Position numbers and translations under genes: made by a program. Positions 13,860 to 64,000 of a stretch of 64,000 nt of DNA are shown here, piece after piece; position 1 is the first letter of the stretch; the number at the start of each line of letters is the position of its first letter. The DNA is taken from positions 1,937,591-2,001,590 of the forward strand of contig LN717261.1 of assembly GCA_001244265.2 (NCBI GenBank), written 5' to 3'. The notes under the pieces are model-generated. The model made no database searches. It saw nothing but the letters and a program-made list of their open reading frames with translations, and was not told the DNA's origin. Source of the stretch: Microbotryum violaceum (taxonomy: Eukaryota).

Positions 13860-15055
13860 AGGACCCCCGAAAGCCCAGCCAGAGGCGGCCCGCAAATTTG
13901 GACATTCTGGGGACCGGAAAATCGGCTAGGCAGCCCGCAAATTTGGACATTTTTGGCTCAAAAGGGGTCGAGGCTCACCCCATTTTTGGACATTTTCCTC
14001 CCTCCGGTCGAACTTTGAAGCGCAGACCAGGGTAGCGGGAGGCGCAGGGCCGCAGGGCATAGCCGGGCCCAGCTGCGCGGCGCGGTGAACAGTCGCGCTG
14101 TTTGCGTTTGGAGCGCGTTAGTGTCTGTATTTGCTGTAAGGTATGTGCCTCTGATGTACAACGATAGGCTAAAAGCAAGTTGTAACTAGAACTACTCAGA
14201 GGCTACTTATTGGGCTGTTCCTGTAAGACATTTGCGATCGTTTATCGTTTTTTGATCGTCTCTCGCTCGGAACGCCGACTTGTCGAGCTACGTCTCCTCT
14301 TCTTCCTTTCGATCTGGAAGCTCTCTCGCCGAGAAATATCTTTTTTTCCTAGTCGTATCTTTCTTTTCCTAGTCGGTCAAAGATTCCCAGGGTTCGCCGC
14401 CGCCGATACACGTCGGATTCTTTGGAACCGATCACCCGATCGCGCGATCACCGAAATGGCATTCGAAGAGCTTTGGGCATCAATTCAGGAGTGCAAGGCT
14501 GGCCTTGTGTCTCTGTAAAACACCTAAGGGGGATTTGGTGGGTATGATCGATTCTGATTCAGGGTCAAAGAGTCCTACACTACTGGCCTAGCCAGTGTGC
14601 TTACCTGCATTTCCTCCGACTTTCCCAGATATTTCTAGGCACATACATATTAGGATATGGCGCGCGGCTGAGAACCTTATTTTGGCGTGCATTCTTCCAT
14701 GTAGATGTAAGTTATATTTATTTTGATCCATCAAATGAATGACAAACAAAAATGAGATCCTATTCGAGTTCATTTCATTTTGAAAAGGCTCGTTGGCGGT
14801 CGCGCTGGCACCGCTCTTGGTGCTCGGTGCGCGCGCGCGCAATCTTTCCCGCCCGCGCGAGGAATGCAGTCTGCGCGTAGCGCAGAAACTTTTCTGAGCA
14901 TTGTACAGCTTGTAGAGTAATTTTGAGAAATTATTCAACACTAGGCGGCCCTCTTTTTTGGACATTCTCAGTCAGAATCCGGAAAAAAATTGGACATTTT
15001 GCCTCGAAAAGGCCGGTTTTAGAGGGCCGCCTATGGCTGGGCTTTCGGGGGTCCT
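13860..15055. mobile_element. Complete non-autonomous TIR DNA transposon, 1196 bp, 32-bp TIRs, 8-bp TSD
   Basis: TIR AGGACCCCCGAAAGCCCAGCCA(G/T)AGGCGGCCC at 13860-13891 and inverted at 15024-15055. TSD GTTCCGCG at 13852-13859 and 15056-15063. No transposase ORF inside. Confidence 0.92.
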
Positions 15056-21002: not shown

Positions 21003-21651
21003 AGCGAAAGCTCCTTGTCGTGCCCGCCATGTCTTCGCAGCGATGTGGTCCCATGGACTGTACCAACCCTTTCTAGACGCATGAATGTGCTGCACTGCGT
21101 CCTTCCTCTGTATTGCTAACCCCTACTACGCCTGCCTCTCCCCGAGTTGGGTCGCTCGATTCCATCGGCCTCCCTCGAGTAGAACAGCTTGAGGTGGCCA
21201 CACTTTTGAGCAGCTTGATGGGCAATCAGGTTGGCCAGTTCAGCGAGAAATTGGTATCACGAGCATCGATAACTTGAGGCGCAGTTGAAGTTTCAAGTGT
21301 GTGGGCTGTGTAGAACCGAACACGCGTGAGCTTAGACCGAAATTTCGATAGTTGAGCTTGGTAGACGCACGATTGGTCGGGAGAAGCTGTTTGCCTTCTC
21401 AACGGCATCGAGTAGATGATAAGGTCGAGTAGTGGGTGAGCTCGTCTTTGGACAACTCGATGTGAAGAGACGCGTCGGCGGGAGCGACATCGAAGGCGAG
21501 GAGCTCGGCGATCGTCATGTTCATGTTGGTGAGTGGCAATGATCAATCGAAAGCATCGTTCAAGGCCTGCATGGGATGATGTTGTCGTGCTATGCTCCAA
21601 TCTCGGACCGAAGTGAAGCGGAACGGAACCTGCGCCCTTTCAATATCTAAT
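21003..21651 (-). repeat. Dispersed repeat, near-identical inverted copy of 63347-64000
   Basis: Reverse complement matches throughout, with a few substitutions and a 5-bp indel; the ORF track shows duplicated peptides (MEHSTTTSSHAG..., MLQSRTEVKRNG...). Confidence 0.92.
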
Positions 21652-25583: not shown

Positions 25584-26018
25584 CTACATGTCGATAGCGC
25601 GGCAAAATTGACGGATTCGCGATAGAGTGGCGTGCGTTGGATCAAACGCCTTCTCGTGTACGAGTTTGTGTTCGACGACATTTACAATGGCAGGACCGCA
25701 CGAGAAGGTATCTTGTTGTTGAGGTGCCCTTGTCGTCGTACCGTGATTCACATCAATGATGAGATTAAATACTTTGAAAAGTGCCTCCAGAGCGTTTAGA
25801 GCGGCGACCGTGAGCGTCCTTGAGGAAAGTGAATTGTGTATGGACCAGGCTCCATGTTTCACATCAATCCTTCCCAGGAACCAGTGGTTCTCGTCACAGA
25901 TTGGCAAGAACCAGACCGAGTTGGGGTGTGCCCTGATGAACTGGGCGGTGCTCGCGATCCCGACGCAGTCGTGCCTTGCCCAGTCGGCTAAGCCACAATT
26001 CGAGCTGATATTGTCCAA
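25584..26018 (-). CDS. Ulp1/SENP-like (peptidase C48) domain fragment carried inside the transposon
   Basis: WFLPICDENHWFLGRID...IHNSL...PQQQDTFSCG: catalytic His (HW), oxyanion Gln and Cys (Q..SCG) present; the usual YDS Asp reads as N. Confidence 0.75.
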   Translation of the reverse strand: MDNISSNCGLADWARHDCVGIASTAQFIRAHPNSVWFLPICDENHWFLGRIDVKHGAWSIHNSLSSRTLTVAALNALEALFKVFNLIIDVNHGTTTRAPQQQDTFSCGPAIVNVVEHKLVHEKAFDPTHATLSRIRQFCRAIDM

Positions 26019-27758
26019 GCAAACCTTAACATCAGATGAGTAAGCGTGGGCGTGAAAAGGGTGAACTTACTGAGCAACTTAGTTCACAAGTCGCTTATGC
26101 CCCAGCTGAGCTCGTTGCCCACTGGCCCGCACGGTAACTCGTGCCACGGCAGGTTTAAAAGTGCTTCTTTAGCCTTGCTGATGTAAAATTCGTCGACTAC
26201 GCACTTCTTTTCGACCCTCTTCATCCACTCGAGCGTGTCTTTGATTCTCCTCCGCGCTTCGCACGAGAGGGGTCAATGAAGGCGTTGCAAAATGCTGCCC
26301 AGAATTGTTCGTTCCCGGAAACGATTCAGTCAAAGGCATTCGACCACTGACACGGAATCGCAGGGACCTACCGCAGCGATGTAATCGCGAGGCGACACCA
26401 CGCGAAGGGAGCGTCCGTGAGTCCTCCTTCGTATACTGGCGGGGCTTGAAGAGCGGAATTTCTTTTTCCACGTTGGCCAGAAACTTTTCGACGGAAGACG
26501 CCGCAGGAAGACCCTGCACGCCGAAGGCCTTGGCGAATGCAAGCATGTCATCCAGCGAATGCACGCCGACCCGGCGTTTGTGGGATCTGAAAAACACGAC
26601 GATGATCATCAGCTATGTTCACAAGGGGGTCACCTCCTGGCCGATCGCGTGATTCCGGAGCAACGAGAGTAGATCGGCCCACGTTCTGACTGGGGAAGGG
26701 AAACCAAGGATGCGACGAATCGGGCACGCTTGTGTAGTTGCGCACGCCCAGCCGTGTCCGCATCTCGGGGGTGCCTGTCACCACAGCTACAGACAATAGT
26801 TGGGAAATACTTGCGTTAGTGGGAAATGCACGAGGTGCGTTGCATCATTGCTCGTCCCCACTCACTGATGGAGCCCGCAGTGGCCCAAGTCTGCACCCAG
26901 TCATCCGACTCTTCTTCCTCCGCCCCGCCATCAATCTCGACTTCGCTGTCGGACTTGGAGCCAGTGCCCTGGGAATAGGGCGAGCAACTGCCTTCTGGAA
27001 GGAAGAGGGCGTGGTCGAGAACGGAATCCTCGTGATCACTTGGCGGGGACGGACTGGAAGCAGGCACGCTTTCAGACGACTTGATGATCTCGCCAGCGAC
27101 AGCAAGCAGAGAGTGGCCTACTGTTCCGGTCTCTGCCGAATTTTGATTGAAATCGACCAAGTCCGCCTCGTCGCTGCTCGAGAGCGCCCGAGGCGTGGGG
27201 TGCAGTAACCGGTTGGTCCAATTTACAGCGGGATCGGCTCGACTGTTGTACGCGTCGAGGTGCTTCTTGGTCGTGGCGTGTCGAACGTCACGACGATACC
27301 ACATGCGCTCGCCACCACAGTACCGGCACACATAACCGGCAGAAGCTCGCTGAGAGGACCATTCCAAAACAAAGTATGTGGATTATGGCGATGAGGATGA
27401 TGACATGATGAAAGTGTTCACGTCAACGCGACTTCGAGCCGGCGGCCGGGCGTGGGTCCGAGTGCCGCAAGGAGTCGCTACCACCCAGGTCGGCCGGGAA
27501 CCATGACGTCGTTAGCACCCACCATTCTCCATGACTTGTTCCAAGTCCCTCGACTGAACGGACATCGTGTTGGCTGTCGAGGGGTGTGTTGTGCCCGGGA
27601 CTGTCAAATGGGCAAACGAAAGAGAGGGTGCCAGGGCTCCGCGAAGGCGCCAGGGCCGCTCCAACTGGCTCCTCTCGCCTCCTCTCACAAACGGTCGCTC
27701 TCAGCCACCGCCCCGGGCACGGCCGGAGCCACCCGCAAGCCGCAGACAAGCTCCGAGG

Positions 27759-29279
27759 CAGGGTTCCCCATTAGATAAGATGATCTCGCAGATATTAGAT
27801 ATCTATCTAAAAAAACCGGGCTCTGGCCCTTATCTATCTATCTCCCATCTTAGTCAGATATCTTAGATAGATGCCTAGATATCTAATAGATATCTAAGTG
27901 GGTTAATATGAGATAGAGATAGACACCAAAGGGGGTTTTGGTGGGTATGGTTGATCCTGGTTCAGGGTCAATGAGTCCTACACTATTGGCTTCTGCCAGT
28001 GTGCGTAACAGCATTCCCTCCGACTTTTCCGAAGATTTCTAGGTATTAATATAATTATGCTGTTAATGAAGTCTATCAAATAAATAAAAAGATATCTTAG
28101 GAGATAAGATGCCAGATATCTTCGCTTGGAGGCGGTCGTTTGGGACGCGTGGGAGCCTGTTGGGTGGCCAGTACCACAATTTAAGTATCACAAAATGTGG
28201 ATGAACAGGCAAAGCTGGCTTTCTGTCCACTGTTTTCTGATTCTCTTGTATTGATAAGTGCTGGGAAGACGGATTATTGCTTGGTCAAGCGGGAGAATGC
28301 GTTGAGGCCGATCGTTGTGCTAATCAGTGTCGTCTGAAATCTCCACCTCTGCTGTGAACAACCGCCATGACGTCTTTAACTTTACCTTCTCAGCTGAACT
28401 AGCCAGCTTGCCAGCGATCGTTTGCAGAGCCTCCTCTCAGTCGAAAGTAGTAAGTCTGTGCCTCATCGTTGGTGGCGAATTTTGTACTCGCAAGCTCCTC
28501 CTCAGCCGTGGGGACGTCCGACTCCAAGCTGCTTTAGCAAAGACTGTCGACTACTAGTATAGTCGTTCAGCGAGGTGTGAGAGTGCGAGTGTGCGACGAA
28601 AGAAGAGTAAACGGCGCGGGTACATTGCGAAGTTCCCAAAATGTCGCAATTGCACCTCCTTTCTTTGTGTGATTTGTGTGGTTAGTTGATAAGCACCCTC
28701 AATTGGAAAACAAAGGAAAGTTTGGCTGAACTGAGAATTGAACTCAGGTCCACTCTATTAATCAGAGTTGCTCTGACCGCTGAGCTACTCAACCAGTAGG
28801 AATAGATGAATATGACGGTGCACCCAAGTCACACCGGCGGTGGTTCTACCACACATTGGGAGCCATGGCGGGCGGACTGGTGCACGGTCACATTGACTTC
28901 TACTCCCTCTGGCAGCAAAAACGTCTGAAGGCCTCAGCTCCCAAATTGGCCCGTCGGCAGGCCGTCCCGCCTCACCCGCCTCACCCGCGGTTAGCGCTTG
29001 GGCCAAACCATGCGGCACAAACATGGGGATTGAGCCGAATACGATTTGAAATTCGATGTCCTCGCTAGGGAGCAAGAACCTCCTTAGGGGAAACTACAAC
29101 TTCCAACGCAACAGGAGTCTGTACCAGACACAAAAAAAGTTAAGATATCTAAAGATATCTAAGGAAACCCCCGGGGCCTTATCTATCTATCTAAGATATT
29201 TGGCCCCTAGATAAGATGTCATCTATATCTTAGCAAGATGTGCTAAGATAGATATCTAGACATCTAATGGGGAACCCTG
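27759..29279. mobile_element. Complete non-autonomous hAT-like element, 1521 bp, 18-bp TIRs, 8-bp TSD
   Basis: TIR CAGGGTTCCCCATTAGAT at 27759-27776 and inverted at 29262-29279. TSD CTCCGAGG at 27751-27758 and 29280-29287. Dense AGATATCTA/ATCTATCT subterminal repeats at both ends. Confidence 0.92.
28723..28794 (-). tRNA. tRNA-like gene (72-nt cloverleaf; anticodon position reads TTA; non-canonical anticodon loop), probably a pseudo-tRNA
   Basis: GGTTGAG TA GCTC-AGCGGTCA-GAGC A ACTCT-GATTAAT-AGAGT GGAC CTGAG-TTCAATT-CTCAG TTCAGCC A. All four stems pair, A-box and B-box are recognisable, and a T-run lies just downstream. Confidence 0.8.
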
Positions 29280-29971
29280 CTCCGAGGGACCGAGTCGCCC
29301 CTCGGAGGCTGATCGGCCTCGTACGCGGTGTTGAGCTTGAGGATGCAAGAAAACATAGTCGTGTGACACAAGGGTGGAAACCCACTGTACAATGAGCCCT
29401 GTAGACCGGAGTACTATCTGCGACCGAACGGGACTCTTGGGCTGACAACCATGGCTTCCGTATGGCAGCATATTTATTCTACTGTAGTGCGACCTCATCG
29501 AGCCCGTACGGCATCCCTGCGTGTGCCATATGGCCCGTCGTTATAGAGCCATAAAACGATCCCTATTGCTCCCATATGGCTGCACGACGGACGCCGTAGG
29601 GCTCCCCAACCCCGATGCCTGAAGGATTTTCCCGATGGCCGCCGTATGAAAGCACTATGCGCGCGCTAGGGGAAAATCCTTATGGCTCCGCCGCTAGGGA
29701 AGCCCTACGGAGGCCTTAAGGATTTTATTCCTATCGAGGCATTACAAAATGCCTTATGGAATCCCGAAACTTGCCTCATGGGCCTCATAGGGCAAAAGCT
29801 GCCTTATGCCCTCCATAATTTTCCTACCGCAGGTTCACCTCTGGCTATATATATACGGAATTAGGTTAATCGCGCGAATAGCAGAGCACTTTGGTCCCGA
29901 GGATGGCAACTCTGGTCCCACATCGGAGGCGACTTTGGGATCACATCGGAGCGGACTTTGGGATCACGTCG

Positions 29972-32047
29972 ATGCGGACTTTGGGATCACATCCGAAGAC
30001 CATTCTTGTACCACGTTCATGGGGACTTTGGTACCACATAGTGTAGACCCCTGTATCTCCTGCAATATGTGATGTATCACTCTGGGAACAGTAGTTTGGT
30101 GTATATATAAATCTATAGCACTTCTGGCCGGTGAGACGAGACGGACGAAGCAGTAGTTGCTACATCGATGTTCTGACCCGCTTGGCCTCTCCGCGCCGGT
30201 GGTGTCAGCGGTCCGGCGCCCGAACCGCCAAGGCCGACACTCCCGAACGTGATTGCGCCGACTCGGATTAGACCAGAATTGGCACCGGTCCCTCGCTTCT
30301 CTCATCCATGAAGAACAGTTCATAGAGATCGAGCCAAGATACGGATTCTAATAAGTCACGCTTCGACCTCGGCGGACTTGTGCTTGTATGATCATTGCAG
30401 TTGAACAATGTTCAAACCCCCCCCCCCGATCTCTTTTGCAGGCCCCGAGCAACGACGGCCATCCGCAGAACCTCCACAACAGGTCGACCTTCGCGGGTTG
30501 ACTCCAAGCTTCTAGAAGAGTGATGGGCAGTTTTGGACGTCATCAGATCCCCACTGCCACGTCCGACGGCTGTTGATGATGAGTAGACGAGGGCGCCTTA
30601 CCGTAAGGTCGCTCGACGACAGCGAGACAGCATTTATATTTGCGTGGAGCCCAGTCATGCGTCTGTTGATATATCTCACGAATAAGAGTTAGTTCGATCA
30701 CAGGACGAAACAAAACGTAGCGCAGCACGCAGCTTCGACACACCTCTGTAGCTATGAACCTTGGAGCTCCAGGACAGGGAGGTTGCTTACAAAGTTCCAT
30801 TCGGATTTTTGCTTGCGAGGAACGAGCGGCCTGAGACGGAGCTCGTTGTGCTCTGCAGTGGTGAAGATGATGTTTGAGAGAAATGCCTCCGTGCTTCGTG
30901 TTCGACAGTTCGTCGGTCTGCGTTCCGCCGAGAGAGCTCGCAGGTATGCCGGTCCAAATCTTCTTGTCTCTCCGAGCCAGGAGTGGTGCGGAGACGACGT
31001 TGTCAGGTAATGCCTCCTCTGATCTGTCTTCTTCGACTCCGTAGTATAAATCGCTTGTCGAATCCTCTTCGGAGTCGCTGGAACAGTTCTTGCGAGAGTT
31101 CGAAAGCCCCGAGGCTGAGGAGGTGCGAGACATCGAGGATTTGGGGGAAACCGCGACCAAAGCTGCCGAGAGTTTCGAATCATCCTCATCCTCATATGAA
31201 TCCGATTCATCATCCGATAGGTATGGCTCTGGCGAGCTTTGTTGTCGCAGCGCAATGGGTGAACGGTCCACTTTGTATTTGACTTGCAGTTGGTTCATCG
31301 CTTAAGTTGTTGACATGAGCGTACTTGGCGTCGTTTAGAAGGTACCCCATCCAGGCGTTGTTGTGCTCGAAATGGACGAAGTATCCGCTCAACAAGGAAG
31401 GAAAGGAGTGCTTTGTGTGAGGATTGTATGTGTACGAGTGGGCGAGTGGGGTGTAAAGACGAGGAGCATACGAAGCTTCAATGTTTTTTTTTTTTTTTTT
31501 TTGCTTGTTTGTTTGCTCGCTTGTTTGTTTGTTCGCTTCAGCGGCATTGGTGAGTTTGCCGGTTTCTAATAAGGGTCCTAACGGTTGCAGGCCTTATAAA
31601 GCTAGAGCTCACCCGTGTGGTTTATGTGATGGCGTCACTGAAATGGTTAGTGATAAGGACGTTACAGTGACAAGGCATAGGGAAAAAAGGGTTTACTCCA
31701 CCCTACGATGTTTGTTGCATGCAACGCCTGCTGCCTCGTCACTGCCAGACGTTGGCAGTCCGACAGTCGTCCGGATTGAGGAATCGCTGACACCACCGAC
31801 ACCACCGCCGGGCGCCGGAGCGGCCAAGCAGGCCGGGGAAGAGTAGAGCCCCGATGTAGCAACTACTGCATTGTCCGCCTTGTCTCACCGGCCAGAAGTA
31901 CTATAGCCCTGTACATGCATCAAACTACTGTTCCCAGAGTGCTACATCACACATTGCAAGAGAACCAGGCGTCTACACTATATGTGGTACCAAAGTCCCC
32001 TATGAACGTGGTACAAGAATAACCTCGGATGTGATCCCAAAGTCCGC
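29972..32047. mobile_element. Non-autonomous element bounded by ~240-bp imperfect inverted repeats
   Basis: 29972-30215 is an inverted match to ~31775-32047 (shared blocks include GCGGACTTTGGGATCACATCCGA, ATTCTTGTACCACGTTCAT, CTCTGGGAACAGTAGTTTG, CTTCTGGCCGGTGAGAC, GCAGTAGTTGCTACATCG). There are three tandem GACTTTGGGATCAC units at 29929-29990 and a Ser/Asp-rich ORF 30543-31298 inside. Confidence 0.75.
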
Positions 32048-32647
32048 ACCCCGGAGCCCCACCTTCGGGCCTCCAGTGACGGACTCGATGGATGGTATCC
32101 GAATCCGGCGATCGAGTCGTTGCGATGGTCACTGTCAGTTATAGCGTTAGAGCACAATCATACTGATAACTAGAAATCTTAGAAAAAGTAGGAGGAATGG
32201 TATATGCTTCTATTGATGTGAAAATAGCTTGCTTAGTAGCTGGGTTCATTTAGAAAAGATGTGAATTCCTTCTGGGATCCGGGCAGCCAGTTTGGGATCC
32301 ATTTCAGCAAATGAATTGCAATCTGATTCTCGTTTTACGAACAAGCTCTTAGTCATTTCTCCGAGCTGTCAGAATTCCGTCCTGACTCCTAATGGGTTCG
32401 TAGCCTGGTCAGGCTCGGCGCACTGCTGTACGAGGTACTCACTGGCTAAGTTGCTTAGATGTCATTAGTATGTGTATGTGGGTGGCGCTGTGACGCGTCG
32501 AGCCCGAAGCAGACCAAAATTCAATGCATGGACTGAGTCATCTTTGTCTTGCCGCCGTCTTTCGACTCTTTCGCACGCTTTCCAAGCAAAGTGTCCTATT
32601 TTTGAGCTCTCTCAAGGTCTCCGCTTCGCTCCGACCCCATCATCGTC

Positions 32648-34573
32648 ATGACGGTCGATCCTTTTAGCGACGGCTACGTTCCGCCCGCCTGGGACGCTGC
32701 GCGCCCGATCCCTACCTCCGGCCACCATACGGAGAAGGCGCTTTTGCGAATCGCGGAGGTATGGAGCGACGCAGACGCTGGCCTCCTCACGGAGGCGGAT
32801 GTACTGCTCATCAAGACGGAGGTCGAGAAGCAGTCACTCGATCCTGCAGCCCTCAACTTCTGGGAGAATCAAATCAACATGCTTCCCTTAGGTGTCGAGC
32901 TCAGCATCGAGTCGCTCGCAGATGCCGACATGCATCCCATCCTCGCGCACGCTTTAGGCTCATCTCGTCCAGCCGACTACATCGCTAGCTACGGAACTCG
33001 ATACTGGACAAAGAATCTGCAGTCGTATCGACTCCGCCGCCAGTCATCAGCAGGAGCTCTGTCAGCGAATCAAGCTTACAACGAGGAAGACGAAGCTGAG
33101 GACAACAGCGAGGACGCACACGATGACGCAGCACGCCGTGTCGCATCTATTCGAGGATTGGGGGACCTACCAATTTATGCCCCCAGCGAACTCGACACCG
33201 ATCACGACGGACGTCTCATCGTGCGCTCCAACCTGTTCATCGAAGGCGAACTTCCTTTATCTTCATTGCCTGCCGGCGATGAGGTGATGTACAAATACTC
33301 CTCCCTGCCTCGAGGATGGATCGTTACCGTCACCGCACCGGCCGCGACTCCTGCGGCTCTTCGTGCTTCGAAGCATCTGAAGCGCCCTACTCGGGAGGAC
33401 GACCAGTGGGATACCGAGGAGGAATCCGCCGACGAAACTTCGGAGGAAGCCCAACGTGAAGAGCTAATGGCGCAACTTAATCGACTTGCTCCTCAGGCCA
33501 GGAAGAAGAAGAAAAGCTTACCCGTCCCTTCGACCCGTCGGGCTCCAACCGCGTACCGCCCTTCCGCGCTCGCTCGCGGTACTCGCTCGCGCCAGGACGA
33601 AGACACAGACGACGAGGACGCCCCTTCTTCCATGTCACCCACTCAGGATCGGGACAAGGCAGCGCGGATGTACGAACAGACCTTGGCGATTCCCCCAACG
33701 GCCTACTCCGAGCTCCCCGACTACGTCCTCAAGCGAAGGGATAAGGAAGACATGTACAAGGAAGCCCTGACTTTCCACCGCTCGCACGTCTACCGACTGG
33801 ACAAACAGGCAGCTACCCTCAAAAAGAACCACGGTCTCAAACTCGACGTCATCGAAATCATGAAGGTCCTTACCGGCCAATTCGTGAGCGCTGTTGATGC
33901 CGACAATCCCGCACCCTCGGATTTGTTCTATATGTTCCAGCACTCCTCCGGTAGCAAGTTCTACGGGATCGAAGCTATGATCCAATCGAAAGCGTCCCTT
34001 CCCAAGAAGACGCTCTCGTATGCTGGACACACCGAAGCTTTAATGGAACTCGAACGACTTGAAGGGGTGGTCTTCAACTATCACCAAGGCCGGGATTGGA
34101 AGCACTACACGCGCTTCCTACGCGAGCTGGCGAAGGACTCCCAACTGGGTTTTGACTTCATGGTTCTCTACGACGACGAGTACCGTAAACAGCTCGCCGA
34201 CCCCGACAAGTCGGTCCACTCGCTGCTCGACGCGCATCTAGGCGACAGTGTCTACGCGAAACTGATCAGCAGGTGGCTAGCTCAGACGACTCCCTTTCGC
34301 AATGAGGGCCCGCCTGCGGCGAACCGCGGCTCCTCATCGCACTCTCGTCAGGGTTCAATCCCACCCAAGAAAAAGCGCAACAACGCCTGCAAAAGGTTCA
34401 ACAGAGGCGAGAACCACATTGAGGAGGACTGCCTTTATAGGCATATCTGCTCATCTTGCAAGGGTGGGCACGCAGCTAATAGTGCTGTCTGCCCGAACCG
34501 TCACCTCCAACATGGAGGACGTCTTGTCGTGGCAGCGGCCGGATCAGCGGCTGGTTCTGCCTCTCGGCAGTAG
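32648..34573 (+). CDS. Gag-like ORF1 of the YR retrotransposon (641 aa)
   Basis: Uninterrupted ORF; YDDEYRK segment and C-terminal CKRFN...CLYRHICSSCKGGH....C Zn finger typical of DIRS/Ngaro ORF1. Confidence 0.85.
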   Translation: MTVDPFSDGYVPPAWDAARPIPTSGHHTEKALLRIAEVWSDADAGLLTEADVLLIKTEVEKQSLDPAALNFWENQINMLPLGVELSIESLADADMHPILAHALGSSRPADYIASYGTRYWTKNLQSYRLRRQSSAGALSANQAYNEEDEAEDNSEDAHDDAARRVASIRGLGDLPIYAPSELDTDHDGRLIVRSNLFIEGELPLSSLPAGDEVMYKYSSLPRGWIVTVTAPAATPAALRASKHLKRPTREDDQWDTEEESADETSEEAQREELMAQLNRLAPQARKKKKSLPVPSTRRAPTAYRPSALARGTRSRQDEDTDDEDAPSSMSPTQDRDKAARMYEQTLAIPPTAYSELPDYVLKRRDKEDMYKEALTFHRSHVYRLDKQAATLKKNHGLKLDVIEIMKVLTGQFVSAVDADNPAPSDLFYMFQHSSGSKFYGIEAMIQSKASLPKKTLSYAGHTEALMELERLEGVVFNYHQGRDWKHYTRFLRELAKDSQLGFDFMVLYDDEYRKQLADPDKSVHSLLDAHLGDSVYAKLISRWLAQTTPFRNEGPPAANRGSSSHSRQGSIPPKKKRNNACKRFNRGENHIEEDCLYRHICSSCKGGHAANSAVCPNRHLQHGGRLVVAAAGSAAGSASRQ

Positions 34574-34618
34574 ATACCTTGAGGACGGCGTCGACTCACT
34601 AACCCCGGACGAGTCGTC

Positions 34619-36163
34619 ATGTCAGACGACAATGGACCTCCGGGCCATCCCTCTCTCTCTCACCTTTCGGGCCTCGGGCTGGCACCCAGGTACCAGAGGC
34701 AATTCCACTTCGACACACCCTCGAAAGACTACCCAACCACTCCTCTCTTTTCTTCGACTTCGTCGCTGGGCAGGCTCCCAGGACCACTCGCTCGCGCATC
34801 CTTCACCGTCGAGCGACTCGCAACCATCGCGGAAACTCAACGACTTTATCCCTCTCAATTCAATCTCACTCGAACGATTGACGATCGATATTTGGGGCGG
34901 CTTCTGGCAGAGCACCCCAACTCGATCCTGGTCAACTCCTTCATCTCCGCTTTCCGTACGGACGGATTTGAGCCACAGCATGATGGCAGTCATGCTCGCG
35001 GCGACGATCCCTCCACCGTACGGTTCCCAAAAAGCGAGCACCACCGCAACTTCATTCAAGCAACCATCGACGAAGAAGTTACGAAGCGCTGGGTCTCCCC
35101 GGGCTCCGCGTTCCCTCTACCCGGAGTCACCTACAATTCGATCTTTGTAGTCAAATCGGCCAACCATAGGATGCGTGTGGTGGCAGACCACACCTCCTCT
35201 GGCCTCAACGATGGGATCCAACGATCTGATTGTCCGACGGTGTACGATACTATCATCGATTTCATTCGCCTGCTTCGTTGGCATCGCTTCTCCTCAAAGC
35301 TCCTTACGGACAGCTCAGTCCTCTGGAAGCTCGACGTCTCTTCGGCGTTCAAAATTTTGGTCATGTCCAAGCGTTGGCAGGCGCGACAAGGCATAGCGAT
35401 CAAGCGAAAATTTTCCGACGGCAGCGTGCACACCTGGTACTACATTGAATGGCGCGGCGTCTTTGGCTGCCGAGCAATGCCGTTCCTCTGGACTAGGTTC
35501 ATGTCACTCCTAATGTGGGCGGCCAACAACACCTTTGGCATCGAGCACCCTCTCGCATACATGGACGACGCGTTCGGGATTGATCTGGGAGGATCAATGG
35601 TCCCCTTCGCGCACAATGGGGCGATTCACATAATCCCGGCCCAGCAAGCAGCGATGGCAACGCTGTGGGGCGGCTTGAAGATACCCTTCAAACTTTCACA
35701 AGAGAAGGCACCACACGGCAGGTGTATTACCATCACAGGCATTCGGTGTAACCTGGCCTCATTCTCGGTATCTCTCCCCGAAAAGTCGATATCCGACCTC
35801 ATCACGGAGATCGATGCTTTCCTCCTCGAACCAACCCGTCACCCGACGCTTCGCAAATGGCGCCAAATGATCGATCTCAAAGTCATCCACGTCCATGGGA
35901 AAGAGAACACTCTGGCGGATGACCTCTCTCGGCTGCACGAGGACCAGCTCCTAAAACGCTTCCATCCCTCAAGCAATTCGACCCCTTCATTCCAGGACTG
36001 GAGGGGACGTTGCTATGACCGCTATCAGACGAGAGGACGGACGGATTCTTGCTTTTGCGCCCCGTCCTCTCCTGGAGCATGGCCGTCGAGCGCAGCCCAT
36101 GCTTCCACTTGGCGAACTTCGTCGCCTGCGCGACGAAACCGCCCTCGATGCGCTCGAACCTAA
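34619..36163 (+). CDS. DIRS/Ngaro-type reverse transcriptase; RNase H core apparently deleted
   Basis: RVVADHTSSGLN, LWKLDVSSAFK, VFGCRAMP, YMDD. LRKWRQMI is then joined directly to DLKVIHVHGKENTLADDLSR, the RNase H C-terminal motif. Confidence 0.9.
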   Translation: MSDDNGPPGHPSLSHLSGLGLAPRYQRQFHFDTPSKDYPTTPLFSSTSSLGRLPGPLARASFTVERLATIAETQRLYPSQFNLTRTIDDRYLGRLLAEHPNSILVNSFISAFRTDGFEPQHDGSHARGDDPSTVRFPKSEHHRNFIQATIDEEVTKRWVSPGSAFPLPGVTYNSIFVVKSANHRMRVVADHTSSGLNDGIQRSDCPTVYDTIIDFIRLLRWHRFSSKLLTDSSVLWKLDVSSAFKILVMSKRWQARQGIAIKRKFSDGSVHTWYYIEWRGVFGCRAMPFLWTRFMSLLMWAANNTFGIEHPLAYMDDAFGIDLGGSMVPFAHNGAIHIIPAQQAAMATLWGGLKIPFKLSQEKAPHGRCITITGIRCNLASFSVSLPEKSISDLITEIDAFLLEPTRHPTLRKWRQMIDLKVIHVHGKENTLADDLSRLHEDQLLKRFHPSSNSTPSFQDWRGRCYDRYQTRGRTDSCFCAPSSPGAWPSSAAHASTWRTSSPARRNRPRCART

Positions 36164-37052
36164 AACCCGTTCAGACTACGCTCGCGCACTACGGCAGTGG
36201 ATTGATTTCATCACCTACTATCGTAGTATGGGCCACCACCTACCCTACGACCCCACTGAGGATACTCTCTCCGCCTTTATTTGCCACCGCTATCGGACGG
36301 TATCCTCGGTCTCCCAAACACTCTCAGGCCTGGCGTTCACCTTTCGCCCAAGGCTCGGTACGGAATGGGAAAGGGTTCGCACCTCGCAACTAGTCACGAA
36401 CACGATTGTCGGCGGCATCAAGTTGTGGCGACGCCCTCGGAAGCAAGCCAAACCACTAAGTTTCCGCTCAGTCGCTTTCGCGCTTCGCACGGCAGTGAGT
36501 AACCCTCGTCTTGACTACGACTCGTTACTGTTCGTGGCAATGGTCGCCTTGGGCTTTGCCTCCTGCGCTCGTAGCGCGGAGCTTGCGTTACCATCAACAA
36601 TCCGATTCCGCGACCCGGCCAAGCTCCCACGTCGGAGTACCGTACAAATGAAGGACGGTGGGTTCTCGGTCCATTTACCGTACCACAAGGCGGACCGCCG
36701 CTGGCAAGGCTCGTACCTCTACTTCACTTGCAACACCACCGCCCCCGTTTTCATCACTATTCTGCGTCGCTACCTTTACGCTAGGGATCAAAGGTGCCCG
36801 ACTTCCCCGCTCCTGTTTGTGACGAAGGCGGGGCTCCCACCCACCCGCACCTGGTTTGTCAGCCGCCTGCGTCGCGCCTTTGGACCGAGCTACAGCGGCC
36901 ACTCTCTGCGCTCGGGCGGCGCCACTCACTATGCTCTCAGAGGCCTCCCTGCAGAAGTCATCAAACGTCTCGGTCGCTGGCGCTCCACTGCTTGGGAGGA
37001 TTACGTTCGGGTCTCCCCTCAGCTGCAGCAAGCCCTCCTGAGCTCGGCATAA
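36015..37052 (+). CDS. Tyrosine recombinase (345 aa)
   Basis: CARSAEL (R), YHKAD (K), YSGHSLRSGGA (HxxR), LGRWRS (W), WEDYVR (Y): complete catalytic set. Confidence 0.95.
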   Translation: MTAIRREDGRILAFAPRPLLEHGRRAQPMLPLGELRRLRDETALDALEPKTRSDYARALRQWIDFITYYRSMGHHLPYDPTEDTLSAFICHRYRTVSSVSQTLSGLAFTFRPRLGTEWERVRTSQLVTNTIVGGIKLWRRPRKQAKPLSFRSVAFALRTAVSNPRLDYDSLLFVAMVALGFASCARSAELALPSTIRFRDPAKLPRRSTVQMKDGGFSVHLPYHKADRRWQGSYLYFTCNTTAPVFITILRRYLYARDQRCPTSPLLFVTKAGLPPTRTWFVSRLRRAFGPSYSGHSLRSGGATHYALRGLPAEVIKRLGRWRSTAWEDYVRVSPQLQQALLSSA

Positions 37053-37094
37053 ACCCCGTATCTTCCATCTCCCGATCATCAACAACAATACACA

Positions 37095-38014
37095 TTACGG
37101 GATGCCGGGTTTCATGCCTGATACTGCAACTCGACTCAAATCCCGCTACCTAGCCGCGCTTCTACGAAAGAGTCGATCGCTTTTCGGCTTTTGCTGCAAG
37201 AGTTTGACGCTGAGGACTTTAGCGCGCGCGACTTCAACACCCGCAGCCGTAAGCCGTGCCCGCACGCAGGCCTCTCGCTGTAAGCCGTGCCCGCACGCAG
37301 GCCTCCCGCAGTAAGCCGTGCTCGCACGCCTGCCTCGAGCATAAGCCTTGGCCCGTAAGCCGCACCCGCGCAGGAATCTCCCCAAGCACGCTCCCGCCGC
37401 ACTGGGTCAGTTCCGCACTGCCTGCTGTTGCCGTACCAGTATTCGCTGCGTACCTTTGCCACCTCCTGCCAAGGTTGGTTGCCGTCCTAGATCTCTTCCT
37501 GCCCTCACGCCTTCTGGCTGACAGGTTCCGAGCATCTCACAGGACCTCCCAGCGATACAAACACGCAACTGCCTCCCAGTCTTCTGCCCTGCCAGACTAC
37601 GACGGACAGCTGCCTACTGCGTACGCCTCTTCTTCTCAACCTTCCTTGTTGGATTGTTGACTGACTGTTCATACCCTGTATGCAGCCGTTTCTGCCCTAC
37701 ACCTGCCAGTGTAGCCGCACCTTATTTTCCTGAGTACCGAGTCACGCTCCCGGAGCTAAGGTACATCACTCCCCCGCATCAGGCTCTACCTTTTGGTACT
37801 CCTGCTCACAACTGTCCTTGTTGGGCATGTTGGCTTACTTGGCTACCTTGCGCTACAGACTACACTTGCCACCCAACGTGCCAGCGTTCAGGGTCGGTTT
37901 CCTTCTTTCAAGTGTGTCACGCTTTCCAAGCAAAGGTATGCCAAGCCTCCCAGTCTTTGCAAGCGAGATTTGAGTCGAGTTGCAGTATCAGGCATGAAAC
38001 CCGGCATCCCGTAA
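37095..38014. repeat. 53-bp inverted repeat pair (37095-37147 / 37962-38014)
   Basis: TTACGGGATGCCGGGTTTCATGCCTGATACTGCAACTCGACTCAAATC(C/T)CGCT, one mismatch. Confidence 0.93.
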
Positions 38015-38987
38015 CAAACGGAATGGGTTGAAAGAAAGTACCCACAAGACAAGAGACCCAGAGATCAGAAGAGAGATAATAAAAGAGAGAAAAGATACCA
38101 AAAAGGTTATTTTATTTTATTTTTAGGGTGGGTGGGAGGAGCTCAAAAATAGGACACTTTGCTTGGAAAGCGTGGATGCTATTAGTACTCAGAAATACTG
38201 CAAAGACTGGGAGGCTTGGCATACCTTTGCTTGGAAAGCGTGACACACTTGAAAGAAGGAAACCGACCCTGAACGCTGGCACGTTGGGTGGCAAGTGTAG
38301 TCTGTAGCGCAAGGTAGCCAAGTAAGCCAACATGCCCAACAAGGACAGTTGTGAGCAGGAGTACCAAAAGGTAGAGCCTGATGCGGGGGAGTGATGTACC
38401 TTAGCTCCGGGAGCGTGACTCGGTACTCAGGAAAATAAGGTGCGGCTACACTGGCAGGTGTAGGGCAGAAACGGCTGCATACAGGGTATGAACAGTCAGT
38501 CAACAATCCAACAAGGAAGGTTGAGAAGAAGAGGCGTACGCAGTAGGCAGCTGTCCGTCGTAGTCTGGCAGGGCAGAAGACTGGGAGGCAGTTGCGTGTT
38601 TGTATCGCTGGGGAGGTCCTGTGAGATGCTCGGAACCTGTCAGCCAGAAGGCGTGAGGGCAGGAAGAGATCTAGGACGGCAACCAACCTTGGCAGGAGGT
38701 GGCAAAGGTACGCAGCGAATACTGGTACGGCAACAGCAGGCAGTGCGGAACTGACCCAGTGCGGCGGGAGCGTGCTTGGGGAGATTCCTGCGCGGGTGCG
38801 GCTTACGGGCCAAGGCTTATGCTCGAGGCAGGCGTGCGAGCACGGCTTACTGCGGGAGGCCTGCGTGCGGGCACGGCTTACAGCGAGAGGCCTGCGTGCG
38901 GGCACGGCTTACGGCTGCGGGTGTTGAAGTCGCGCGCGCTAAAGTCCTCAGCGTCAAACTCTTGCAGCAAAAGCCGAAAAGCGATCG
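37174..38987. repeat. ~788-bp near-perfect inverted repeat (37174-37961 / 38199-38987) with internal ~31-bp tandem units
   Basis: Direct reverse-complement match, with one C-run indel seen. GTAAGCCGTGCCCGCACGCAGGCCTC units at 37249-37373 are mirrored at 38788-38912. Confidence 0.95.
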
Positions 38988-39222
38988 TCTGTCTCATACT
39001 TTTTACTACTGCCGGATCTGGGCTCCGAATAACATGATCATGGGGGATGCTACCCAAAACCAGAACATTGGCATTGCACTGCAGCCATAGTCTGCGCACT
39101 ACACTGAGCGCTCTAAACAGTTACCTATCATAAGATGTCATGACGAGATCACAAGAACAGTAGTCAGGCTTCGCTGAAGCATTCGACTTTTCCGACCATT
39201 TATAGGCGCTCAGAAATTGTGC

Positions 39223-41495
39223 TCCGCCCATGTGATCTAGCTCGAATCACTCAGCCCTCTGCGCCTGCACCTCGAAAGAGGTCCGACTGGAACGCGTTCC
39301 AATACAGCAAATATGCCGACAGACTAGCGGCAGAGGAAGGTATCGAGTGTGCATCCCCAATTCAAGCGTTCGTAAACTTCGGAAGTGCCTTGATGAAGTG
39401 CTCTGACATCAAATCTGCTACTCTGCAGTGCCACCCGGCCTGATGGACAGGCAGCCGACCACGACTAGGTATTGGAGACGCATCGCTGGGACAGAAGCCG
39501 ATCGGCTCGAGTGCGCGAAGATCCTTGCTCTCGAATACCCCCCGGAAGAGCGCGATGCGGACGAAGCAAACGACGCGGACAATGTGGACGAGGCTGCTGT
39601 CAGCATCGCATATCAGCGACCTTCTAGTCTGGTCGCGAGTGACAAGGCAGCCGCACTAGCGGCTAAGGAACTGGCCTCAAAACTACAAGAGCTGGTAAGT
39701 TGCAAGCTTCTGGCCCAAGCTGATGGTCCGTCGAAGAACCATGTCTATTATCCTTCTACTCACACAACTTCATTCTCGTACACTTCGTTTATACCTTTGC
39801 CAGGCCGACTCTTATTCCGCGAATTTAATCTTGAAACCTTTGTGCTGGTCGCTTCTAGCCGCGTGGAGCGCCGTGACGATCGCTTCATTGTGTCTTCTCC
39901 AGGAGGGAAAGCGTTCGCGCAGCGCATGGGATGGGACGACAAAGACGGAACGTTCGGGATACTGAAGTCTCTGACCAAGTGTGTGACTGGTCGTTCCGCG
40001 CTCGAGGAACAGGCACAAGATCAGAAGCGGTTAGGTGCGGAACAAAATCTTACCTTGATGAGGCGCGCTCACGCGTCACCGCGTAACCCTTGCTCTTCGC
40101 CCTGTCCACTATTAATGATACGTGGCTTGCTCTGATATTTCCGTAGTCTGGGAGGCCGACGTCAACGACAAGCGGTATCAGCTTGCAGATCTTGTGGAGT
40201 GGTACTCTCGATTGGTGAGACACTTCTTCAGTAAGTACTGTTTGCTTGCTTGCTCGCGATCCCGACATGTCTGGGAGTTTTTCCTCTCCGTCCTGACCTA
40301 ATTCATGCTCTCATTCTCATCTAGCTACCGCACTGCAGAATCGATGCGCTCGAGACCATGTCGCTGTACCCGAAAAACCGCGGTTTTGGTACGATAGGAC
40401 CAAACTTCTTTCTCAGCACGGCATGACTGTCCATTTCAGCGGGGATTTGGGCCTCAAGGACTTCCGCAGTCCAACTGGCACGCCCAAGATGAATTTGGAC
40501 GACCTTCGACGAATTATCCCCCTTTTGCGCGACAAGAAACTGGAATTCAGGTTGGCGCAAGGCCGACCGGCCGACTCTGACAGTTCTGAAGACGACCTGT
40601 GATTGGGGTATTCTTCAGGATGTCCATAACCTCGAGCACTGTGTGACAAAGAGACTTTGGTGTAAGCTTAGGCACTCAGTGGGCGCTATGATGGAAGTGC
40701 AAGGCTGCAGTGTTGCCCCACCGAATACACGGTCGCCGCCTCTCAGTTTGCAGGCTCGATTTGCTGGGGATCAATTTCAATATCGCGGTATTCCACTGAA
40801 AGACTGCCTCTTATCATAATCAAAGAGAAAGGGCTGTACAGTCACTTCAAATCGAACGCTAAACAGCTCGTATCAAGACTATTCACATGAGCGAATGCTC
40901 ACACTTTTACTCGCTAGCCCATTTGTAGCGGACACTGGCCTGCCAGGGGCGACGGGCCACGGCGGCCGGCATAGTGTTCAATGTCTTGAAGCCTCCCCTT
41001 AAAGCCCATCCAAGTCCGACGGCGAGGTATCATCAATCATCGATCACATTATAAACGAAGGCGTGAGACAAGCTTCCAATGAGCGAAGAGAAAAGCCACA
41101 AATGCATCTATACTTAGCCTGACTCGGGGTACGGATCACCATTGGAAATATCTTAGCGTTCAATGCGACTGAGACTGAGAGAGAGATTTAAAGATCAGCC
41201 CGCGCACTCGAGCCGATCGGCTTCTGTCCCAGCGATGCGTCTCCAATACCTAGTCGTGGTCGGCTGCCTGTCCATCAGGCCAGGTGGCACTGCAGAGTAG
41301 CAGATTTGATGTCAGAGCACTTCATCAAGGCACTTCCGAAGTTTACGAACGCTTGAATTGGGGATGCACACTCGATACCTTCCTCTGCCGCTAGTCTGTC
41401 GGCATATTTGCTGTATTGGAACGCGTTCCAGTCGGACCTCTTTCGAGGTGCAGGCGCAGAGGGCTGAGTGATTCGAGCTAGATCACATGGGCGGA
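39223..41495. repeat. 295-bp inverted duplication (39223-39517 / 41201-41495) within a transposon accessory-type gene
   Basis: Reverse-complement match with one substitution seen; peptide RPCDLARITQPSAPAPRKRSDWNAFQ appears on both strands. Confidence 0.93.
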
Positions 41496-50684: not shown

Positions 50685-50921
50685 ATGCGGGTCAAAATAA
50701 GCTTAACAAATATACTACCCCGTGCGTGGCGAGTTAAGGGAGCTTTTTGGATATTTGGCCCAGGAAAACGTTGGTACGGGCTAGGTGCACCATTGCCCTG
50801 CCAAACCCCAGCCCCCCGGAGGCAAAAGTGGTCACTAATTCGGGCACTTGCTACCTATCTCCGCTAATGGTCCATCTGCCTCAGCACGACGAGTTCCCCG
50901 CACTTCCCTCCACCCAATGCC

Positions 50922-62970: not shown

Positions 62971-63267
62971 AACGTTCCCTATCCTCTTCTACTCGGCATC
63001 TTCGTTTGCTCACTGCGCTGCTCCTCATAGGTTAGTGTAATACATTTCGAACGTTCCCTATCCTCTTCTACTCGGCATCTTCGTTTGCTCACTGCGCTGC
63101 TCCTCATAGGTTAGTGTAATACATTTCGAACGTTCCCTATCCTCTTCTACTCGGCATCTTCGTTTGCTCACTGCGCTGCTCCTCATAGGTTAGTGTAATA
63201 CATTTCGAACGTTCCCTATCCTCTTCTACTCGGCATCTTCGTTTGCTCACTGCGCTGCTCCTCATAG
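62971..63267 (+). repeat. Perfect tandem array, 79-bp unit, ~3.8 copies
   Basis: AACGTTCCCT recurs at 62971, 63050, 63129 and 63208; the units are identical. Confidence 0.97.
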
Positions 63268-63346: not shown

Positions 63347-64000
63347 ATTAGATATTGAAGGGGCGCAGGTTCCGTTCCGCTTCACTTCGGTCCGAGATTG
63401 GAGCATAGCACGACAACATCATCCCATGCAGGCCTTGAACGATGCTTTCGATTGATCATTGCCACTCACCAACATGAACATGACGATCGCCGAGCTCCTC
63501 GCCTTCGATGTCGCTCCCGCCGACGCGTCTCTTCACATCGAGTTGTCCAAAGACGAGCACACCCAGTACTCGACCTTATCATCTACTCGAGGCCGTTGAG
63601 AAGGCAACTGAAACAGCTTCTCACGACCAATCGTGCGTCTACCAAGCTCAACTATCGAAATTTCGGTCTAAGCTCACGCGTGTTCGGTTCTACACAGCCC
63701 ACACACTTGAAACTTCAACTGCGCCTCAAGTTATCGATGCTCGTGATACCAATTTCTCGCTGAACTGGCCAACCTGATTGCCCATCAAGCTGCTCAAAAG
63801 TGTGGCCACCTCAAGCTGTTCTACTCGAGGGAGGCCGATGGAATCGAGCGACCCAACTCGGGGAGAGGCAGGCGTAGTAGGGGTTAGCAATACAGAGGAA
63901 GGACGCAGTGCAGCACATTCATGCGTCTAGAAAGGGTTGGTACAGTCCATGGGACCACATCGCTGCGAAGACATGGCGGGCACGACAAGGAGCTTTCGCT
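63347..64000 (+). repeat. Dispersed repeat, inverted copy of 21003-21651 (runs off the window)
   Basis: Direct reverse-complement match. Confidence 0.92.

Follow-up and report, generated by a model that had tools for sequence, protein, structure and literature searches.

A tRNA-like gene with an ochre-type anticodon, carried by a 204-bp dispersed repeat within a hAT-type transposon of Microbotryum violaceum

The tRNA-like gene and its anticodon loop

The stretch of Microbotryum violaceum DNA analysed here (64,000 nucleotides of contig LN717261.1, positions 1,937,591 to 2,001,590; hereafter, the window) contains a 72-nt tRNA-like gene with UUA in the anticodon position. The gene is found on the minus strand at 28723..28794, within a 204-bp dispersed repeat unit that lies, in turn, inside a 1521-bp hAT-type DNA transposon. 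It was detected by Rfam family RF00005 as well as by ARAGORN, and has a 7/4/5/5 cloverleaf. The RF00005 match to 28723-28794(-) covers model positions 1-71 of 71 with a score of 49.9 bits (E-value for the whole window, 1.1e-07; gathering score of the family, 29), i.e., the cloverleaf lies above the curated threshold of this structural family, and tRNA is the sole Rfam family reaching its threshold in the 64 kb. ARAGORN likewise predicted a single tRNA in the 64 kb, which was placed at 28722-28795(-) and designated tRNA-Stop with the anticodon tta. When random windows generated by a first-order Markov model were used as a control, only one out of 30 contained any ARAGORN call, a poor one with a four-letter anticodon.

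All of the four stems are paired throughout (acceptor, 7 bp; D, 4 bp; anticodon, 5 bp; T, 5 bp), with G-U pairs at two positions of the acceptor stem. The D loop reads AGCGGUCA, the variable loop GGAC (4 nt), and the T loop UUCAAUU; the discriminator is A, and CCA is not encoded. Inspection by eye, in the numbering used here, showed that the core letters U8, A14, G18 and G19, G53, U54, U55, C56, A58 and C61 are canonical. The letters of the A box are found at about 28787-28776 and those of the B box at about 28743-28735. Thus, a cloverleaf with four fully paired stems and A and B boxes, as described in the initial annotation of this DNA, is indeed present, and its strand can now be given as minus. 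A T-run, TTTGTTTT, is located on the same strand at 28707..28714, 9-16 nt past the discriminator. Its presence had also been pointed out, but it holds just four consecutive T residues, and may possibly serve as a weak candidate terminator for RNA polymerase III (Pol III).

The cloverleaf has a predicted energy of -22.0 kcal/mol vs. -23.8 kcal/mol for the minimum free energy (MFE) fold. In the latter, the D-arm sequence GGUCAGAG forms an 8-bp pairing with CUCUGAUU, which comprises the anticodon stem's 5' strand together with G32-U35 (28759-28778(-), tRNA positions 17-35), so the odd letters of the anticodon loop lengthen the helix of this competing fold. The ARAGORN drawing includes an eighth acceptor pair, formed by the U that precedes position 1 (28795) and the discriminator A (28723). 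Together with the 4-nt variable loop, this pair may be reminiscent of the layout of tRNA-His. Similarly, the 8-nt D loop, the 4-nt variable loop and A73 make up what may be the layout of the His/Asp/Glu/Gly class, which provides no more than a lead to the parent isotype.

The anticodon loop, GAUUAAU, occupies 28763-28757 and is read as G32, A33, U34, U35, A36, A37 and U38. Both the sequence and the tta call of ARAGORN agree with the earlier reading of this loop as GATTAAT, with TTA at positions 34-36 and G32/A33 ahead of it. A canonical 7-nt anticodon loop has a pyrimidine at position 32, U33 and a purine at position 37. In the tRNA-like gene, G32 and A33 stand in place of the expected pyrimidine and U33, and the loop is consequently not canonical, even though A37 is normal. 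U33 has been described as almost invariant and as the basis of the U-turn, with C33 of eukaryotic initiators and G33 of Candida tRNA-Ser(CAG) as exceptions (PMC5041475).

These features bear on the most literal interpretation of the prediction, namely, that the RNA acts, albeit weakly, as an ochre (UAA) suppressor tRNA which has been spread by a mobile element. Such an interpretation is extremely improbable. The gene does resemble ochre suppressor tRNAs of natural or laboratory origin (anticodon UUA) in having UUA at positions 34-36 followed by A37, and its structural and tertiary-pair positions appear canonical when checked by eye. However, those tRNAs keep U33 and a pyrimidine at position 32, whereas the gene considered here has A33 and G32 and is a member of a repeat family. 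The A33 stands at a position where U33 is described as near-invariant (PMC5041475), and G32 could pair with the opposite U38, thereby shrinking the loop to 5 nt. Codon usage in the window offers no sign of reassignment either, as TAA ends 9 of the 34 long ATG-initiated open reading frames (ORFs), although these are raw ORFs and the test is a weak one. Moreover, the suppressor-type predictions in related fungi all derive from long terminal repeats (LTRs) of Helenus elements, and were judged to be non-functional (PMC10886601). On the other hand, a fungal tRNA that decodes without U33 does exist, namely, the above-mentioned tRNA-Ser(CAG) of Candida with its G33 (PMC5041475), and it is because of this case that a small probability is kept for weak activity. 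The weak suppressor activity allowed for in the initial annotation found nothing in its support. Judged by its letters, the tRNA-like gene is unlikely to take part in decoding.

A 204-bp insertion carrying the gene into a hAT-type element

The outer element is a non-autonomous hAT-type DNA transposon of 1521 bp (27759..29279). Its termini are inverted repeats of 18 bp, CAGGGTTCCCCATTAGAT, which match perfectly (100% over 18 nt) and are located at 27759-27776 and 29262-29279; they start with CAGGG, the hAT start motif being YARNG. The element is flanked by an 8-bp target-site duplication, CTCCGAGG, the left copy of which is found at 27751..27758 and the right copy at 29280..29287. Thus, it has both the 8-bp duplication and the short terminal inverted repeats that are expected of hAT elements. 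No long ORF is present in 27759-29279, and no hAT transposase domain was detected among the window ORFs scanned (sets of 8, 16 and 47).

For comparison with other copies, contigs of four public runs (X1, X2, X12 and X15, which carry four organism labels) were aligned to positions 27500-29540 of the window. The depth ratios of X15, tentatively labelled as RNA, resemble those of the DNA runs. The results given below are based on 32 out of 744 aligned pieces and 40 out of 282 variant rows, in which variation among copies within the tRNA-like gene is mostly out of view. In X2 and X12, one contig each joins 27749 directly to 29279, skipping 1529 nt, i.e., the element together with one copy of the duplication; the shorter sides of these two joints are 23 and 21 nt. 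The flanks of the element (27500-27758 and 29288-29540) are several-fold deeper than single copy (190-510 in X2 vs. about 57), and one of the 'empty' contigs shows four G>A differences in the flank to the right; this hAT copy thus sits within a further repeat. Given the short joint sides and the deep flanks, the contigs without the element may derive from a paralogue of the target rather than from the same locus, but a true insertion is supported either way. Overall, the outer element is similar to hAT elements of the Ac/Ds type with regard to the 8-bp duplication, the perfect 18-bp repeats with their CAGGG start, the lack of a transposase ORF and the existence of element-free versions of the target. 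It differs in that it acts as a carrier only; the tRNA-like gene is foreign to the ancestral hAT sequence.

Evidence for the latter comes from hAT copies in which the 204-bp unit (28701..28904, minus strand) is missing. Four distinct contigs pass over it, with joints at 28669->28910, 28673->28907, 28690->28905 (X1) and 28674->28905 (X2). At these joints, CCCTC is found once per copy, in one case as a one-letter variant, whereas the window holds it twice, as a 5-bp target-site duplication at 28696..28700 (left copy) and 28905..28909 (right copy). Since copies without 28701-28904 hold CCCTC once and the window holds it twice, the tRNA-like gene came in on a 204-bp insertion accompanied by a 5-bp duplication, and was no part of the ancestral hAT sequence. 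Accordingly, the initial description of the gene as lying inside a transposon is correct as to its location within the hAT element, but not in the sense of hAT cargo, because the gene belongs to a separate insertion that is absent from four other hAT copies. The borders of the unit recur elsewhere. Loose ends of X15 contigs at 28690 and 28905 agree with them; an X12 contig aligns from 28701 on and is preceded by unrelated sequence (a loose end before 28701); and a 4251-nt X12 contig (record 14), which has the single-copy depth of 25.9 and is 83% identical over 28761-28904 (25 differences), stops aligning at 28904. This diverged copy may hint at a conserved tRNA part next to a diverged hairpin, which would speak for constraint.

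Several observations show that the unit is dispersed and, at least in part, young. A 148-nt contig of X15 (record 20) spans 28757-28904 at a depth of 97.2, while the contigs of the flanking sequence have depths of 2.5-9 in the same run. There is one difference from the window in these 148 nt, and the loop at 28757-28763 is identical. The difference must be the one at 28798, since all of the X15 contigs read G there, and, as the contig spans the loop and differs nowhere else, the GAUUAAU loop of this high-depth copy is the same as that of the window. The G variant at 28798 is also found on three X2 contigs, each of which has about single-copy depth. Summed depth, which according to a warning of the tool is no copy number, reaches 923.5 in X2 and 778.5 in X12 at this position, four bases upstream of the gene, as compared with about 55-60 and about 26 for long contigs. 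Thus, the 204-bp unit is present at several distinct loci, at roughly 10-30 times the single-copy depth, in the related genomes. The odd loop, as far as can be read from these sequences, is a copied feature of the family and not a local accident. The comparison of stems and loop across copies, which had been proposed in the initial annotation, is thereby answered in part: the loop is shared with the high-depth X15 copy, which is the only one among the pieces listed to cover it. Searches for the D arm and T arm with any anticodon arm in metagenome and genome contig collections, and for the anticodon stem with any loop in a metagenome contig collection, gave 0 matches; these collections are mostly prokaryotic, so the result carries little weight.

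The same observations argue against an origin by capture, according to which the hAT element would have taken up a host tRNA locus through gap repair or transduplication and would now carry a decaying tRNA pseudogene as cargo. It is true that the insert holds a flank, a gene and a T-run, as a genomic tRNA locus would, and non-autonomous hAT elements often take up filler DNA. Against this, the insert is bordered by a clean 5-bp duplication, and four other hAT copies are without it at that exact point. In addition, the unit occurs outside the hAT element with the same borders and with the 110-nt part that lies upstream of the gene, as seen in the single-copy X12 contig, the X12 loose end and the X15 contig. 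Conservation of the sequence upstream is not normally expected among independent tRNA genes. Capture is, therefore, very unlikely.

The copies also bear on whether the gene is maintained by the host. The initial annotation had proposed that intact stems combined with a non-canonical loop reflect selection on the Pol III promoter or on structure rather than on translation. The underlying observation stands, as the loop is unfit for normal decoding while the Pol III box letters are kept, but selection at this locus is not needed to explain it: because the unit is young and present in many copies (that of X15 differs at one out of 148 nt), copying alone is sufficient to account for intact stems. 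The annotation had further suggested a role as a heterochromatin barrier, i.e., that the host retains the unit as a Pol III/TFIIIC-bound barrier or insulator in a transposon-rich region. The letters of the A and B boxes are intact, and tRNA genes and B boxes can be barriers in yeasts. Insulators are also among the SINE-type functions regarded as conceivable for TRIMp3 elements, a group discussed below, by Kojima 2024 (PMC10886601). Nevertheless, nothing about the unit is specific to this locus. It is one of many near-identical copies, the intactness of which is explained by their youth, and the transposon copy around it lies, in turn, within repeats, as judged by the flank depth in X2. A barrier role is thus hardly probable, and it is more likely the mobile element that benefits from the promoter-like module, as has been proposed for Helenus/TRIMp3 (PMC10886601).

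In the sense of the tRNA, the unit consists of a 110-nt hairpin region, the 72-nt tRNA-like gene and a 22-nt tail with the T-run. The hairpin region is an imperfect inverted repeat (28795..28904, minus strand) which was recognised by folding and lies directly 5' of the gene, its end being the base that precedes tRNA position 1. The predicted fold of the 204-nt unit has an energy of -68.3 kcal/mol (z-score, -4.33), and none of 200 shuffled sequences folded as well; for the 110-nt region folded as DNA, the z-score is -2.91, with 2 out of 200 shuffles as good. The hairpin had no Rfam match at E-values up to 1, on the basis of which the presence of a second degenerate tRNA, or of some other known RNA, in this region was dismissed.

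The abutting position of the two structures could mean that the tRNA-like fold is a processing handle, with RNase P cutting at the junction between hairpin and tRNA so as to free the 110-nt hairpin, which might then serve, e.g., as a precursor of small RNAs. The hairpin indeed stops one base before tRNA position 1 and is more stable than its shuffles. However, no promoter is evident for such a transcript, transcription from the internal Pol III promoter would start downstream of the hairpin, and no Rfam family matches it. We regard the processing-handle explanation as very doubtful.

The termini of the unit, in the sense of the tRNA, are AGTAG at the start and CAATT at the end, and no clear terminal inverted repeat was seen in its sequence. 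Self-comparison of the window revealed no second copy of the unit, and its ends and hairpin have no similarity to anything else in the window, including a LINE-like (long interspersed nuclear element-like) reverse transcriptase. An origin as a Helitron, as a miniature inverted-repeat transposable element (MITE) or by other cut-and-paste transposition was rejected on inspection by eye, as both terminal inverted repeats and TC...CTRR ends are lacking. A mitochondrial origin was likewise rejected, as the diverged and the G-variant copies are found on contigs of single-copy depth and the sequence of the unit is not AT-rich. Finally, the possibility that the tRNA-like RNA itself is used as a retrotransposon primer was discarded, because no sequence complementary to its 3'-terminal 12-18 nt, whether CCA is included or not, is found elsewhere in the window.

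Affinity of the 204-bp unit

According to Kojima 2024, Helenus is grouped with Cassandra and Ajax in TRIMp3 (PMC10886601). As described there, Helenus LTRs have reported lengths of 120 to 323 bp and contain a tRNA-like sequence in which the A and B boxes are conserved, the box motifs being TRGCY, YGG and GGTTC. The fungal elements generate 5-bp duplications, many of their copies are solo LTRs flanked by such duplications, and they are apparently mobilised by Copia elements. Their priming relies mostly on the anticodon loop of the initiator tRNA-Met, and in some cases on its 3' end. Most Helenus sequences were judged to be incapable of encoding a working tRNA, and the few fungal ones that still look functional are of the His or Thr type. 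In rust fungi, the predicted tRNA-Sup-CTA genes derive from Helenus in 109 out of 109 cases in Uromyces and in 245 out of 245 cases in Cronartium (all from PMC10886601).

In a number of respects, the locus studied here matches this description. The corresponding box letters of the gene are TAGCT, CGG and AGTTC, the last of which agrees with GGTTC at 4 out of 5 positions, and CCCTC is found on both sides of 28701-28904 as a 5-bp duplication. As in Helenus, the repeat that holds the tRNA-like sequence and its box letters has the size of an LTR (204 bp), and, as in the fungal families, a solo copy is enclosed in a 5-bp duplication. The host belongs to Pucciniomycotina, like the Helenus-rich rust fungi, and the tRNA prediction is of the suppressor type (tta, as compared with tRNA-Sup-CTA in Uromyces and Cronartium). 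Moreover, in another copy, the tRNA-like part is oriented toward a sequence which resembles a primer-binding site. This sequence is the X12 loose end that abuts 28701 and starts, in the sense of the tRNA, with TGGTAGCG, as would be expected of a primer-binding site complementary to the 3' end of a eukaryotic initiator tRNA-Met (...CGCUA-CCA). This reading presumes an initiator tRNA with A1:U72, A73 and an added CCA. Inside the window, TGGTAGCG has one match, at 27476-27483(-), which was discarded as evidence since it is at chance level (at least one match in 75 out of 100 shuffles).

Based on these similarities, the tRNA-like gene is interpreted as the part of tRNA origin in a short, dispersed repeat of a retroelement; this repeat is most likely a Helenus-like TRIMp3 solo LTR, an assignment to which a probability of roughly 0.55 is given. 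A Helenus-like element of this group is an LTR retrotransposon of miniature size, non-autonomous, with a Pol III promoter derived from a tRNA in its LTRs. If the unit is an LTR, the 110-nt hairpin region would be its U3-like part. A comparable arrangement is known from Cassandra, in which a relic of a small-RNA gene within the LTR supplies a Pol III promoter and terminator; there, the relic is a 5S rRNA and not a tRNA, the hosts are plants, and transcription has been shown experimentally (PMC10886601).

A number of points weigh against the assignment to Helenus. The unit ends in AG...TT and not in TG...CA, the latter termini being usual for LTRs. The likeness to Helenus is a likeness to its published description. 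Neither the window nor the run contigs listed contained a copy in which two LTRs enclose a primer-binding site and a polypurine tract, and the putative primer-binding site stems from one contig end of one run and from presumed features of the initiator tRNA. The unit itself includes the four-T run downstream of the gene, and transcription starting in a 5' LTR would have to read through it. The window lacks a Copia element with intact LTRs and has only a short RVT_2 fragment. Furthermore, the cloverleaf of the gene is complete and high-scoring, whereas most Helenus structures do not support tRNA function, and Kojima 2024 found no Helenus in Microbotryum (PMC10886601). Apart from this negative statement, no description of the element was found in the literature on hAT elements, SINEs (short interspersed nuclear elements) or tRNA genes of Microbotryum, and a literature search with the terminal-inverted-repeat and D-arm strings found no paper containing them.

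The atypical ends make it necessary to consider another class of small mobile repeat, either a SINE-like one moved by a LINE or an unclassified one, in which the tRNA part would still be a non-decoding, promoter-bearing relic. Besides the lack of TG...CA termini, the dispersed nature of the unit, its fixed borders and its short duplication are compatible with this explanation, and the window holds, at 48467-50702(-), a LINE-like reverse transcriptase that has a zf-RVT domain. Fungal tRNA-related SINEs with duplications of 4-14 bp are known, and tRNA-derived SINEs (SINE2), such as AfuSINE2 of Aspergillus fumigatus, are likewise short, dispersed and non-decoding and carry a Pol III module (PMC5063351). 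However, a SINE2 is composed of a 5' tRNA head, a body and an A-rich or LINE-derived tail. In the 204-bp unit, the tRNA-like part is not 5'-terminal, as 110 nt precede it and only 22 nt follow, and a tail that is A-rich or made of repeats is missing. The 110 upstream nucleotides would be beyond the reach of the internal Pol III promoter, the unit has no similarity to the LINE or to the rest of the window, and a sequence like a primer-binding site adjoins it in one other copy. Thus, membership in another class is unlikely, although it deserves to be kept in mind. If the Helenus assignment is false, the 204-bp unit would be some other short retroposon.

Provided that the unit is a Helenus-like LTR, the two boxes (A and B) as well as the cloverleaf would have been kept for present or recent Pol III transcription of the element, which would proceed from the 5' LTR toward the primer-binding site. 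The anticodon loop would be unconstrained, and UUA behind G32/A33 would have arisen by happenstance. The window copy would then be an inert, dead-end solo LTR. If made at all, the transcript would be a short, pre-tRNA-like RNA, which could be trimmed by RNase P and RNase Z, and its use by ribosomes would be expected to be poor or nil. A more far-reaching version can be put forward, in which the unit would represent the first TRIMp3 lineage in Microbotryales, with non-canonical LTR ends and a near-perfect tRNA body that has a fixed, copied loop; in the boldest form, its RNA would be transcribed by Pol III and active, either in weak UAA read-through, for which the G33 of Candida would be a precedent, or as a processing handle for the hairpin. 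This version is given only a slim chance.

Taken as the tRNA-derived part of a Helenus-like LTR, the locus looks like the anther-smut counterpart of the Helenus-derived tRNA-Sup-CTA predictions in rust fungi (PMC10886601). The most fitting reading of the 'ochre suppressor' is as a tRNA relic borne by a repeat; relics of this kind are known, but had not been reported from the present lineage. In practical terms, fungal 'suppressor tRNA' calls of this sort are repeat-derived and are not to be read as evidence of recoding. If the unit is truly an LTR, the range of TRIMp3 extends to Microbotryales, from which the group was reported to be absent, and a small, young family of about 10-30 depth-equivalents becomes available for testing Pol III-driven LTR retrotransposition.

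Other repeats and genes of the window

The hAT element contains a second nested insert, a 169-bp SINE-like repeat with an A-rich tail at 27921..28089 on the plus strand. It is missing from other hAT copies in all of the four runs (joint 27920->28090). Its depth amounts to about 27,000 in X2 and about 12,900 in X12, while single-copy depth is about 57 and about 26, respectively, and the body of the hAT element has a depth of about 450 in X2. More copies are found in the window at 14520-14639 (84% identity), 32151-32199 and 58295-58335. The repeat has no Rfam match and is separate from the tRNA-bearing unit. The three nesting events, i.e., the insertion of the SINE-like repeat and of the tRNA-bearing unit into the hAT element and that of the hAT element into repeated DNA, can serve as markers of recent transposon activity in this group.

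Several of the window ORFs are indicative of a fungus, namely, those for an HRQ1-type helicase, a GT32 mannosyltransferase, a MADS-box protein and a uricase. The GT32 ORF is 98% identical to a protein of Microbotryum silenes-dioicae, and the next matches are also from Microbotryum. Mobile DNA is represented by a Copia reverse transcriptase fragment, a Ulp1-protease fragment, a DIRS-like element and the above-mentioned LINE-like reverse transcriptase. The Copia-like stretch at 10.6-11.2 kb is the short RVT_2 fragment, and no further domains were detected in 24 neighbouring ORFs. The Ulp1 (C48) protease domain fragment, found at 25584-26066(-), is of a type that certain large DNA transposons contain. 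The DIRS-like retroelement extends over 32606-38998 and contains long ORFs with weak matches to RVT_1 and Phage_int_SAM_4, which hint at a reverse transcriptase and a tyrosine recombinase, followed by inverted repeats of 414 and 388 nt (37163-37961 / 38199-38998; 99-100% complementary).

Perfect inverted repeats of 295 nt, located 1683 nt apart at 39223-39517 and 41201-41495, surround an ORF of 242 amino acids without a Pfam match, and 39223-41495 possibly represents a DNA transposon whose terminal inverted repeats are long. A sequence of about 650 nt is present twice in inverted orientation with 98-100% identity (21003-21651 and 63347-64000), representing two copies of another repeat, and the copy at 63347-64000 is adjoined by 79-bp tandem repeats at 62971-63267. 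Just to the right of the hAT element, at 29909-30043, four imperfect, ACTTTGGGATCACATCGGAGC-like repeats with a spacing of 23 nt were observed. They edge inverted repeats of 140 nt (30035-30174 / 31845-31984; 84% identity), which enclose an ORF of 252 amino acids with no Pfam match.

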